From a bacterium (GTDB lineage: Bacteria > DUMJ01), in the NCBI GenBank assembly GCA_049970495.1, contig JBMFMV010000018.1, positions 1-28,291 on the forward strand: a stretch of 28,291 bases of DNA. Reading direction: 5' to 3'. The notes beneath the pieces were generated by a model that did not search any database, was not told the origin of the DNA, and saw only the letters and a program-made list of their open reading frames with translations. Within the stretch, counting starts at the first letter, position 1; each line of letters starts with the position of its first letter. The translations under genes were made by a program, and so were the position numbers. Positions 836-14,330 of the stretch are shown here, piece after piece.

Positions 836-1474
836 CTAGGATTTTACTGATTTAGGGTTTTGCTTTTGATAATGTCTTTTGTTTAGCTCTCTATATATTT
901 CTTGGGGAGCTACCTCTAATTTGGCTAGTAAGACTAACGTATGATAGAAAAGGTCAGAAATCTCATAAACTACCTCATCTTTATTATCTTTCATCCCTGC
1001 TAATAAGACTTCCACTATTTCTTCACCAATCTTTTTAAGAATCCTTTCTCTTCCTTCTTCTAGAAGTCGAGAGGTATAAGAATCTTCTGTAGGGTTAAAC
1101 TTTCTAGATAGAATTATCTCATATAGCCTATCTAGGTTAAATCTGGTATATTCTTTAGAGTAAATCTCTTGAAAAAAGCAACTTAAATGTCCTGTATGAC
1201 AAGCTACTCCTTTTTGTTCTACTATTACAAGCAGCGCATCTCCATCACAGTCTAATCTAATCTCTTTTACTTTTTGTATATTACCACTAGTCTCCCCCTT
1301 ATTCCATAGCTTTTGTCTCTCTCTACTCCAAAACCATGTAGTCCCTGTCTCTATGGTCCTTTTCAAAGATTCCTCATTCATATAACCCAACATAAGGACT
1401 TCTCCGGAATTAGCCTCCTGGATAATGGCGGGGATTAATCCATCCTTATCGAACTTTATATTAGATAAGTTTAT
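836..1474 (-). CDS. hisIE: Bifunctional phosphoribosyl-AMP cyclohydrolase / phosphoribosyl-ATP pyrophosphatase; 5' end uncertain (no ATG/GTG/TTG upstream of 1393)
   Basis: [29 protein letters not shown] and KKIGEE motifs. The conserved HisI N-terminus [22 protein letters not shown] is encoded in frame at 1456-1391, upstream of the ORF-track start. Confidence 0.93.
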
Positions 1475-2232
1475 AGTCGTACCGGGATCCCTTCCTTTTT
1501 TAGATATTCTTTTATCTCTTTTACCGTGTACTTTTTGTAGTGTAATAGAGAAGCAATCAATGCAGCACTGGCTTTTCCATCCTTTAATACGTCTCTTATG
1601 TGCTCTAAGTTCCCAGCACCGCCTGAGGCTATTACAGGTATATTAACCATTTCTACTACAGCCTTGGTAAGAGTTATATCGTATCCTTGTTGTGTTCCAT
1701 CGGCATCTATACTTGTAAGCAGTATTTCCCCTGCGCCCAGTCTTTCCACCTCTTTAGCCCAACTTACTGCTTCTAGATTGGTAGGTGTAGTTCCCCCATT
1801 GATGTAAACTCTCCAGCCCCCCATATTTTCATCTCTTTTTGCATCTATAGCTACAACAATACACTGTGAACCAAAGATCTCCGATGCTTCTTTTATAAAA
1901 GATGGATTTCTTACTGCCTGTGTATTTATGGATACCTTATCTGCACCTGATCTTAATATCTCTCTTATTTCTTCTACGCTACCTATACCACCTCCTACTG
2001 TAAAGGGGATAAATACCTTAGAAGCTGTTCTTCTGACAAGTTCTACAATAGTTCTTCTTCTTTCAATAGAAGCAGTTATATCTAAGAATACTAATTCATC
2101 TGCTCCTTCTTTATCATAGTATTCCGCTAATTCTACTGGGTCTCCTGCATCTTTAAGGTCTATAAAATGTGTCCCTTTTACAACCCTGCCATCTTTTACA
2201 TCAAGACAGGGTATTATCCGCTTAGTGAGCAT
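1471..2232 (-). CDS. hisF: Imidazole glycerol phosphate synthase cyclase subunit
   Basis: [48 protein letters not shown] motifs. Confidence 0.98.
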
Positions 2233-11921: not shown

Positions 11922-12919
11922 TATTCCCTCCTTGAAGTTGTATTTCTAATGATAAGTTCGGGCTCAAGCACCAGGTTTTGTCTTTCTCCTTTCATTAACT
12001 TAAGAAGGAGCTCCACAGCCTTTCTCCCTAGCTCTTCTTTAGGTTGTTTGACTGTAGTAAGGGGAGGATCAGTGAAATTAGAGAAGAATATGTTATCGAA
12101 CCCAATGATTGATAGTTCTTCAGGGATCTTTATACTTAATTCTTTTGCTGCCTTTATTACCCCAAATGCCATCAAATCATTGTAAGTAAATATAGCAGAA
12201 GGAGGATCCTTAGTGTAGAGTAACTTTACTGCTTCTCTATAACCTGATTCTGCTGTAGGAGTATTAAATGAGACCAAGTTAGGATTATATCTTATCCTAG
12301 ATTCTATAAGTGCCTTTTTATAACCAGACAATCTCCTTTTTGCTGCCTCAGAAAGACTAGGTCCGTTTATAAAGGCGATTCTTGAATGGCCAAGATTTAC
12401 CAAATATTTAGTTGCTAGATATCCACCCTTTTCCATATCTACTGAAACATATGATATTTTTGGATGTTCTAATATTCTATTTATAACTACTATTGGTAAT
12501 CCTTCTTCAGCTAGATTAATGATATGTTCATTTGATATCCTAGAGGCAGAGATTATAACTCCGTCAACTGGACCACGAGAGAAAAAGTCTAGATAATTTG
12601 TCTCTTTTTCTTCTGATTCTGAGGTATTTCCTAGAAGGATGGTATATCCAGCTTCACTAGCCTTTTCTTCTGCTCCCCTTACTAGCTCAGGGAAAAAGGG
12701 ATTAGTAATATCAGTTATGAGAAGTCCAATATTCTTAGTACTTCTAGTCGTTAAAATTTGCCCTCTATAATTAGGTTTGTAATGTAGTTTCTTCGCTACT
12801 TCTATTATTCTCTGTCTAGTTCTTTCACTTATCCCTGGGTGGTTATTTAATGCCCTACTAACAGTAGAAGGGGATACCCCCGCTAATTTTGCTACTTCTT
12901 GGATATTTGCTCTTTTCAT
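11921..12919 (-). CDS. LacI family transcriptional regulator
   Basis: IQEVAKLAGVSPSTVSRALN HTH, YKPN hinge, NPFF, IIGFDN, PPLTTVKQP. Confidence 0.97.
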   Translation of the reverse strand: MKRANIQEVAKLAGVSPSTVSRALNNHPGISERTRQRIIEVAKKLHYKPNYRGQILTTRSTKNIGLLITDITNPFFPELVRGAEEKASEAGYTILLGNTSESEEKETNYLDFFSRGPVDGVIISASRISNEHIINLAEEGLPIVVINRILEHPKISYVSVDMEKGGYLATKYLVNLGHSRIAFINGPSLSEAAKRRLSGYKKALIESRIRYNPNLVSFNTPTAESGYREAVKLLYTKDPPSAIFTYNDLMAFGVIKAAKELSIKIPEELSIIGFDNIFFSNFTDPPLTTVKQPKEELGRKAVELLLKLMKGERQNLVLEPELIIRNTTSRRE

Positions 12920-12953
12920 ACCTTCCCTCTATAACGATTGCAATTTTACTTGC

Positions 12954-12982
12954 ATTTTATAATGAAAGCCTTTATATGTCAA
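12954..12982 (-). promoter_or_regulatory. Sigma70-type promoter of the LacI operon
   Basis: TTGACA (12982-12977), 17 bp, TAAAAT (12959-12954). Confidence 0.8.
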
Positions 12983-13199
12983 GCGGTTCGACGTTCTAAA
13001 TTTGTAATCATTAAATGTAAGGTTGTATATTGATTCCTGAAGGTAGCAAGAAGGGCATTATTTGTCCCTCTAGTTTGTGATATTATTTAAATAAAAATGG
13101 AGGTAGGAGAGTTATGATATATGTAACCCTTATTCCGAGTTTTAGTTATCATGATACGAGAATCTTCTGTATTGGGCAGGCTGAAGAGCCTTTATTAAT

Positions 13200-13228
13200 T
13201 TGACTTTAGTATACTTTTGGAGTATAAT
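13200..13228 (+). promoter_or_regulatory. Sigma70-type promoter upstream of the TolB-like gene
   Basis: TTGACT (13200-13205), 17 bp, TATAAT (13223-13228). Confidence 0.7.
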
Positions 13229-13427
13229 CTTTCATAAGAGGCAAGATAGTGAAGGGAGTTGAGATTGGAAGGATAGGAGTGTAAGATTTGGAATTTCCCT
13301 TGTTAGTTTGAGGGAGGATTTAAGTTTTAAATTCTTTGAAAGAAGAACTGTTAGGGAGTCTTAAAATTTTATTTATCTTGTCTCTAAATGTGGATTTTTT
13401 ACTTTTTATTATAGAAGGGAGAAGAAT

Positions 13428-14330
13428 ATGAAAAGATACCTAAGATTATTAGTGTTTTTTATAGTACCAAGTCTCTTCCTTATGGGACTTTACGGTTGCG
13501 ATGGTTGTAACCCAGAGTCTATAGTAAATTTGGGAAGAATCGTGTTTGCAAGTGGACGTGATGGAGACCTTGAAATTTACACAATGAATCCGGATGGAAC
13601 TGGTCTAACTAAGATTACAGATAATCAAGCTCTTGACTATTGTCCCTCTTTTTCTAAAGATGGTTCAAAGATTGCCTTTGTATCTGAACAGGAGGGAAAC
13701 CCGGAAATTTACACAATGAATAGGGATGGTACTAATCAGGTTAGAATTACAAATAATCCCGCTTGGGATTATTATCCAAGTTTTTCTCCAGATGGACAAA
13801 AGATTTTATTCTATTCTAGACGTGATGGAAATGATGAGATATATCTCTATGATCCGACGGTTATTTCTCATCCTCAACTGACCAATCTTACCAATGATCC
13901 AAGTTATGATTTGCATCCATCCTTTTCCCCAGATGGGCGAAAAATTGTCTTTGTTTCTGACCGTGATGGAGATACTGAGATCTATACAATGAGTATAGAT
14001 GGTACTAATCTAACTAAGCTTACTAATAATAATAGTCAAGAATATTTTCCTCGTTTTTCACCAGATGGTGGTAAAATCGTATTTACATCCAATCTTGATG
14101 GAAATGATGAGATCTATATAATGAATGCAGATGGCTCTGGTATAACTAGACTTACAAATGACCCAAGTCAAGCTTGGTCCCCCTGTTTTTCATTACTCGG
14201 TACAAAAATTGTCTTTCAATCTAAACGTAGTGGAAGTTGGGAAATATATGTAATGAATATTAATGGAACTGACTTGACTAAGCTTACAGATCATCCCTCT
14301 GGTAATGTGGATCCTTTCTGGGGACGTTAA
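13428..14330 (+). CDS. TolB-like beta-propeller (PD40 repeat) lipoprotein
   Basis: Signal peptide with lipobox-like LYGC; about six P.FSPDG.KI.F.S.RDG..EIY.MN.DG repeats. Confidence 0.9.
   Translation: MKRYLRLLVFFIVPSLFLMGLYGCDGCNPESIVNLGRIVFASGRDGDLEIYTMNPDGTGLTKITDNQALDYCPSFSKDGSKIAFVSEQEGNPEIYTMNRDGTNQVRITNNPAWDYYPSFSPDGQKILFYSRRDGNDEIYLYDPTVISHPQLTNLTNDPSYDLHPSFSPDGRKIVFVSDRDGDTEIYTMSIDGTNLTKLTNNNSQEYFPRFSPDGGKIVFTSNLDGNDEIYIMNADGSGITRLTNDPSQAWSPCFSLLGTKIVFQSKRSGSWEIYVMNINGTDLTKLTDHPSGNVDPFWGR

Follow-up and report, generated by a model that had tools for sequence, protein, structure and literature searches.

The stretch of DNA analysed here (the window) is the 28,291-nucleotide (nt) contig JBMFMV010000018.1 of GenBank assembly GCA_049970495.1, a metagenome-assembled genome (MAG) of an uncultured bacterium, and the subject of this report is the translation start of its histidine biosynthesis gene hisIE. 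The window carries the gene order hisB-hisH-hisA-hisF-hisIE on the minus strand. The MAG comprises 143 contigs, is judged 95.5% complete, has a G+C content of 36.8% and holds a single copy of hisIE; the source runs of this DNA are labelled as hot-spring metagenomes. An earlier reading made from the letters of the window alone (the sequence-only reading) had noticed that hisIE has no canonical start codon ahead of its conserved N-terminus and had proposed either a -1 frameshift out of hisF or initiation at a near-cognate codon. Our analysis favors the latter, with ACG as the probable start. The features on which the argument turns are the following (window coordinates):

1471..2232, minus strand: hisF, imidazole glycerol phosphate synthase cyclase subunit, 253 amino acids (aa), stop TAA at 1473-1471
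836..1480, minus strand: hisIE as proposed, with ACG 1480 as the first of 214 codons, the stop at 838-836 and a 10-nt overlap with hisF
1478..1480, minus strand: ACG, proposed near-cognate start of hisIE, made of the last base of a hisF Val codon (GTA) and the CG of a hisF Arg codon (CGA)
1487..1497, minus strand: AAGGAAGGGAT, a Shine-Dalgarno (SD)-like stretch within hisF, in the codons Lys-Glu-Gly-Ile
1472..1474, minus strand: ATA overlapping the hisF stop (ATAA), rival start; ATA in 9/13 family sequences, TTA in 4/13 (2/7 species)
1391..1393, minus strand: first canonical ATG of the hisIE frame, the start in most public gene calls, which removes 29 residues
1495..1501, minus strand: A_AAA_AAG heptamer in the phase of hisF, seven codons before the hisF stop

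The product of hisF scores 387.9 bits against TIGR00735 (cut-off 294.55) and also matches Pfam His_biosynth; the 3' end of the gene reads CTA AAA AAG GAA GGG ATC CCG GTA CGA CTA TAA. The reading frame of hisIE runs without interruption from 1642 to the stop at 838-836, and in the list of open reading frames (ORFs) the earliest ATG, GTG or TTG of that frame is the ATG at 1393 (ORF 836..1393, 185 aa). The ORF listing and the translation thus confirm, at the same coordinates, the missing canonical start from which the sequence-only reading had set out. An assembly error, which that reading had considered as a cause, does not account for it, because a contig from an independent 2017 run shows 0 differences across 1450-1641 and because 12 other sequences of the family described below have the same hisF/hisIE junction layout.

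The conserved N-terminal stretch of HisIE had been placed 5' of ATG 1393, and this holds: it is encoded in the 29 codons that precede that ATG. When read from the ACG, the protein scores 275.1 bits against NF002747 (cut-off 187), with residues 3-205 corresponding to positions 5-207 of the 208 positions of this curated NCBIfam profile. It is full length against the profile, and both domains of the bifunctional phosphoribosyl-AMP cyclohydrolase / phosphoribosyl-ATP diphosphatase are present, matching Pfam PRA-CH (PF01502) and PRA-PH (PF01503). The alignment to the solved HisIE structure PDB 6j2l (E 2.2e-46) begins at residue 12 of the ACG-started protein, with residues 12-29, all of them 5' of ATG 1393, included. 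In the family comparison the same codons are conserved at the level of the protein and carry many synonymous changes. As judged from this pattern of substitution, the hisIE codons 5' of ATG 1393 are shown to be translated.

For the comparison, hisF/hisIE junctions were taken from 40 other genomes, a species-level genome collection and metagenome contigs. After removal of duplicates, the set contained 13 distinct family junctions and 135 distinct outgroup junctions with a placeable GL[IV]P motif; 20 further loci without the motif were excluded from the junction count. In the searched collection, the family makes up the whole of its GTDB class and phylum, namely seven uncultured species from two genera. 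A canonical start precedes GL[IV]P in all 135 outgroup junctions, and 133 have one 8-20 codons before the motif Gly, whereas 10 of the 13 family junctions have none before the conserved N-terminus, so the missing start is more than chance. The remaining three (all of the G003 type) have an ATG merely 7 codons before the motif Gly. Genome G005 (5% contamination) carries on contig C242 (locus L029) a second hisIE, at 48% identity and with a normal ATG start, which is probably from another organism in the bin.

An in-frame ACG is invariant at the position of ACG 1480-1478 in all 13 family sequences, which cover all seven species of the phylum. In hisF it is spelled by a Val or Ile codon, GTA or ATA and always ending in A, followed by the CG of the penultimate Arg codon. 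The latter is CGA in five sequences, CGG in five and CGT in three, i.e. the third base drifts and the CG is fixed. Codons of the CGN type are otherwise avoided for Arg: they make up 8.9% of Arg codons genome-wide and fill, across these 13 sequences, 3 of 190 cells in the 16 further Arg columns that are conserved in hisF and hisIE, and the homologous hisF Arg of the outgroups is AGR in 116/126 and CGN in 10/126. An A followed by CGN occurs in just one outgroup, which has a normal ATG start. Preservation of the ACG obliges the hisF Arg to be CGN. The position of the ACG, 13 codons before the Gly of GLIP (15 in three species with a two-codon insert), is that of the outgroup hisIE starts, which cluster 11-15 codons before the motif Gly. 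The family N-terminus T-x-[IL]-[DN]-x-[ST]-x-[IV]-K-[FY] aligns with the outgroup M-A-L-D-I-N-S-L-K-F, and a 6-nt indel between the hisF stop and Ile-Lys-Phe preserves the hisIE frame.

The ACG is located 7 nt after AAGGAAGGGA, where the sequence-only reading had put it, and the GAAGG core of the SD-like stretch ends 9 nt before it. This element is GAAGGG, or GAGGGG in G006, in 13/13 family sequences. Its Gly column is the sole one among 31 invariant Gly columns of the two genes with a single codon, GGG, in all 13; genome-wide, GGG accounts for 19.5% of Gly codons. SD strength was scored as duplex energy against the anti-SD, with 1086 unambiguous starts of this genome as the reference. For the anti-SD the usual short motif was used, the 16S 3' end not having been found in the MAG by two short motif searches. 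A log-odds model of 5-mers by gap had been dropped as too noisy to separate candidates (CCCGG scored high), and duplex energies were used instead. At the reference starts, 9 nt is the modal GAAGG gap, and GGAGG is found at 9 nt 47 times, at 12 nt 10 times and at 15 nt five times. The duplex energies of the three candidate codons are -7.6 (ACG 1480), -5.6 (ATA 1474) and -6.6 kcal/mol (ATG 1393). The 17-nt geometry is identical at the conserved ATT start of an amidohydrolase gene in the same genome, AAGGAAGGTGAGTAAAG-ATT compared with AAGGAAGGGATCCCGGT-ACG. On the codon-level evidence, the ACG and its SD are shown to be under selection.

When the in-frame ACG codons lying 5' of first canonical starts were listed for the genome of the window (G000), one other strong candidate for an ACG start emerged:

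G000 contig C37, ~12874-14136, plus strand: M16 peptidase directly behind pnp (loci L226/L232; relatives L227-L231 and L233)

The ACG of this gene is present in 7/7 genomes, in six of which there is no canonical start. The earliest canonical start codon, a TTG, already falls within the HxxEH zinc motif; numbered from the ACG, residue 6 is the first to be covered by the Pfam M16 profile. A GGAGG stands 11 nt before the ACG, the SD being formed by an AGG AGG Arg-Arg pair of pnp, and the ACG itself is spelled by xxA and CGN of the poorly conserved pnp tail (CAA CGT CGG in six genomes, AAA CGC in G006). Genome G006, alone in having a TTG at codon 4, has an in-frame TAA directly before the ACG, and therefore no upstream start is possible there; in G005, no canonical or AUH codon (ATA, ATT or ATC) is found in the vicinity. 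Among the outgroup M16 loci, 22/23 have a canonical start. As an independent case with the same layout, the M16 gene makes the use of ACG as a start in this lineage more credible.

We consider it rather probable (about 0.65) that hisIE is translated as a gene of its own from ACG 1480-1478, which lies within hisF, 10 nt from its 3' end. The SD in the Lys-Glu-Gly-Ile codons would position either a 30S subunit or a ribosome that is completing hisF, and the initiator transfer RNA (tRNA) would pair with the ACG despite a middle-base mismatch, resulting in a 214-residue HisIE that begins with (f)Met. The ordinary initiator tRNA would presumably be used, since a normal-looking tRNA(CAT) is present and a CGT-anticodon initiator is not: the 40 tRNA genes include three CAT tRNAs and one ordinary-looking tRNA-Thr(CGT), and no CGT anticodon was found in an initiator-like body among these 40 (bodies judged by eye). 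Output would be expected to be low because ACG initiation is very weak in E. coli, where, in the available part of the source, ACG falls in the class that starts GFP at 0.1-1% of AUG, with an N-terminal Met (10.1101/063800). It would perhaps be raised by coupling to hisF translation. The extended SD would probably help initiation at ACG, as it does at the weak starts of S. aureus, and so, probably, would ribosomes arriving from hisF.

Several points weigh against an ACG start. Because of the kinship of the family sequences, counts such as 13/13 suggest more independent cases than there are. The duplex energy of the ACG is just at the median of true starts (-7.4 kcal/mol), and ~5% of internal codons also reach that level. 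The genome scan at the strict SD threshold gave no further ACG start (0/17), the M16 case having come from the laxer list described above. With a codon as weak as ACG is in E. coli, little of the enzyme would be produced in the absence of help from coupling or from the ribosomes of the lineage. Further, ATA, ATT and ATC starts are real in this phylum (fmt, mnmA, amidohydrolase and infC, described below), an ATA, ATT or ATG follows the ACG by no more than seven codons in each of the family sequences, so that a shifting AUH start is possible, and NCBI calls of relatives begin at ATT or ATA, that of P0004 being an ATT adjoining the ACG. The last three points would favor a hisIE start at an ATA or ATT at or just after the hisF stop, here ATA 1474, with the exact codon depending on the species; ribosomes ending hisF would possibly restart there without needing the SD. 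Such a start is the main rival of the ACG and has to be taken seriously, but it is, in our estimate, doubtful. No position is conserved: ATT is found at codon 2 in three species, ATA at codon 3 in five and ATA at codon 5 in two, and L116 is without any AUH codon before its ATG. The two NCBI calls disagree, with ATT at codon 2 in P0004 and, in P0026, an ATA nine codons upstream of the ACG and upstream of the SD. At codon 3, ATA and TTA alternate as Ile/Leu, as an internal residue would, and the outgroups have an internal Leu there; ATA 1474 is also 15 nt from the SD core. Nor does an AUH start explain the CGN Arg and the A-ending Val/Ile codon of hisF. Near-cognate initiation had been proposed at either ACG 1480 or ATA 1474, the latter overlapping the stop as ATAA, and both codons lie where the sequence-only reading located them. 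Of the two, the ACG is borne out by its invariance, the rare codons, the SD spacing and the position of outgroup starts, while the ATA is the weaker, being replaced by TTA in 4/13 and standing farther from the SD core.

The other proposal, programmed -1 frameshifting at A_AAA_AAG (or at the shorter A_AAR) near the end of hisF to give a HisF-HisIE fusion, now appears very unlikely. The heptamer is indeed in the phase of hisF in the window, seven codons before the stop, A_AAR is found in 13/13 family sequences, and in each of these the -1 frame is free of stops over the last 22 or more codons ahead of the hisF stop. A fusion may also be tolerated, as hisF and hisIE form one 464-codon open frame at a locus of a distant Clostridiales MAG (L040). 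However, the full heptamer is retained in just 4/13 family sequences. In the others the site is disrupted, by synonymous or other changes, and reads AAA GAG, AAG AAG or AAG AGG, an outcome that the sequence-only reading had named as speaking against slippage; the protein stays Leu-Lys-(Lys/Glu/Arg). In-phase copies of A_AAA_AAG are common in the genome, with 228 in 1859 crude gene models and 39 of these within the last 30 codons. A conserved structure 3' of the heptamer was not found (RNAalifold consensus -4.7 kcal/mol, 2/16 pairs covarying). Folding prediction does return the CTTATC/GATAAG stem pointed out earlier, but the region is no more stable than its shuffles (z +0.79; 160/200 shuffles fold at least as well). 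In the dnaX type of frameshifting, the SD is spaced 10-14 nt upstream of the slip site; here, the SD-like element lies 3' of it, not 5'. The would-be linker varies freely (RDPGT, RDLCT, RDSST, GDSNT), which leaves the invariant ACG unexplained, and in the parallel M16 case the in-frame stop directly before the ACG of G006 excludes any upstream shift. We judge A_AAA_AAG at 1501-1495 to be a chance product of Leu-Lys-Lys codons, a doubt that the sequence-only reading had itself voiced and that the lack of conservation and the frequency in the genome bear out. The two remaining explanations are more improbable still. C-to-U editing of the messenger RNA (mRNA) could turn ACG into AUG, as in plant organelles, with canonical initiation to follow. 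An ACG is conserved at two start positions, which says nothing specific for editing; no motif common to the surroundings of both ACG sites is visible, and literature searches on ACG initiation gave organelle and viral cases only. We know of no C-to-U editing of start codons in bacterial mRNA. Equally hard to credit is translation from ATG 1393 into a 185-residue protein, or a hisIE in decay. Most public gene calls use this ATG (185 aa, beginning MLGYMNEE), and a weak GGAGA lies 7 nt upstream of it, with the duplex energy of -6.6 given above. The 29 upstream codons are nevertheless conserved as protein with many synonymous changes, their residues align to 6j2l from residue 12 and to the NCBIfam profile from position 5, and hisIE is single-copy in the genome.

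Possible fused arrangements of these genes were seen elsewhere. In L040 (721-2112) the uninterrupted 464-codon frame reads ...GVNIRRGKGDMELLKEIKFDEKGLIP... and an internal ATG remains; it is a possible natural HisF-HisIE fusion. At three loci of distant genomes (L013, L027 and L028), the hisIE match lies inside open frames of 419-508 codons beside hisF- or hisA-like sequence, which hints at other fused his gene arrangements.

The ACG of hisIE can be placed among other near-cognate starts in the phylum. The genome was scanned for open, coding-like stretches 5' of first canonical starts, and genes were aligned in G000 and five relatives. The genes found, with their starts in the six genomes where given, are:

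G000 contig C33:1317: fmt; ATA, ATC, ATT, ATT, ATC, ATC (AUH in 6/6)
G000 contig C29:12737: mnmA; ATA, ATT, ATA, ATA, ATC, with a TTG elsewhere in G006 (AUH in 5/6)
G000 contig C53:1931, minus strand: amidohydrolase; ATT, ATA, ATT, ATT, ATG, ATT (AUH in 5/6)
G000 contig C15:1702, minus strand: unnamed gene; ATT, ATG, ATG, ATT, ATG, ATG
G000 contig C70:8055, plus strand: infC, encoding initiation factor IF3 (L225); an in-frame TAA is followed at once by the ATA, AAGGAGGG stands 9 nt before the start, and the contig ends within the gene

Across the six genomes (loci L197-L224), the AUH codons that start genes behind strong SDs are interchanged at a given position, in some cases also with ATG. 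For IF3 genes a near-cognate start is usual. About a dozen more ATA, ATT or CTG codons are listed in G000 as start candidates. At a threshold of -7 kcal/mol, 17/176 ATA and 12/128 ATT codons stand behind a strong SD compared with 218/3319 overall, and at -8 kcal/mol 13/235 ATA compared with 149/5366 overall, both comparisons being diluted by contig-edge fragments and broken genes. Several long coding-like stretches 5' of first canonical starts, on C52 (~11447, minus strand), C23 (~15650), C68 and C10 of G000, are more suggestive of genes disrupted by frameshifts or in-frame stops than of unusual starts. A broader proposal would be that hisIE is no isolated oddity and that the phylum keeps the starts of a class of genes weak on purpose, with ACG (hisIE, M16 peptidase) as a regular, selected member beside ATA, ATT and ATC (infC, fmt, mnmA and others), and that their output follows the level of IF3 or the fidelity of initiation. 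We put this forward as speculation and think it unlikely to hold in full.

Within the window, the hisH ORF (TTG 3536 to 2880) extends 56 nt beyond the hisA ATG at 2935 (2880-2935). The HisH profile match stops at residue 197 of 218, and the 20-residue tail of hisH overlaps hisA. No Rfam family reaches its gathering score in the window.

If ACG is a working, selected start in bacteria, the accepted set of bacterial start codons would be incomplete, and gene finders, which as standard are unable to call an ACG start, would systematically truncate or misplace such genes. For hisIE, public calls either cut 29 residues or choose inconsistent ATA or ATT codons; in further family lineages among public proteins (P0027-P0034) the calls are truncated. 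The comparative signature used here, a rare CGN Arg held in the upstream gene and spelling ACG in the overlapping frame, could bring out more cases. The hisIE gene would also be a natural case in which to study how a biosynthetic enzyme can be sustained by a very weak start, be it through coupling, an extended SD or lineage-specific initiation fidelity.

Each of several known systems resembles the hisIE junction in part. With the -1 frameshifting of dnaX and the IS3 family it shares an identical in-phase heptamer and a -1 frame open into the next coding region. It differs in that the heptamer is unconserved (4/13), a stimulatory structure and an upstream SD are lacking, and hisIE has an SD of its own and a conserved start-like codon. 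As in ATGA stop/start overlaps, the start would lie a few bases from the upstream stop, with the SD within the upstream coding sequence, but the overlap is 10 nt (ACGACTATAA) and the start is not ATG, GTG or TTG. Initiation at ACG is familiar from eukaryotes and their viruses (AAV, i.e. adeno-associated virus, VP2; Sendai virus C'), where the same codon is a weak alternative start read by the initiator tRNA; there, however, it depends on a scanning 40S subunit and Kozak context, and hisIE would rely on a Shine-Dalgarno element on a bacterial polycistronic mRNA. Our full-text literature searches for a natural, conserved bacterial ACG start found none, the matches being viral, organellar or engineered. 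ACG is not among the start codons of NCBI table 11, and the ACG of hisIE falls outside the accepted bacterial alternatives (AUU, AUC, AUA, CUG). The remaining likeness is to the AUU and AUA starts of infC (IF3), pcnB and S. aureus cvfC1, ccpN and citZ, in which, as in hisIE, a conserved near-cognate codon stands behind a strong or extended SD. The accessible parts of the sources describe starts of the infC type as SD-backed with lower initiation (10.1101/063800) and the weak starts of S. aureus as reaching ~10% of AUG, with an extended SD at all sites (PMC13009471). The proposed start of hisIE differs from these in the mismatch at the middle base and in lying inside the upstream gene; the E. 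coli classes, in the part of the study available, are 0.1-1% for ACG and 1-2% for AUA, AUU, AUC and CUG (10.1101/063800). Conserved weak starts such as the AUU and AUA of infC are nonetheless well known, and hisIE belongs to that known kind of phenomenon.

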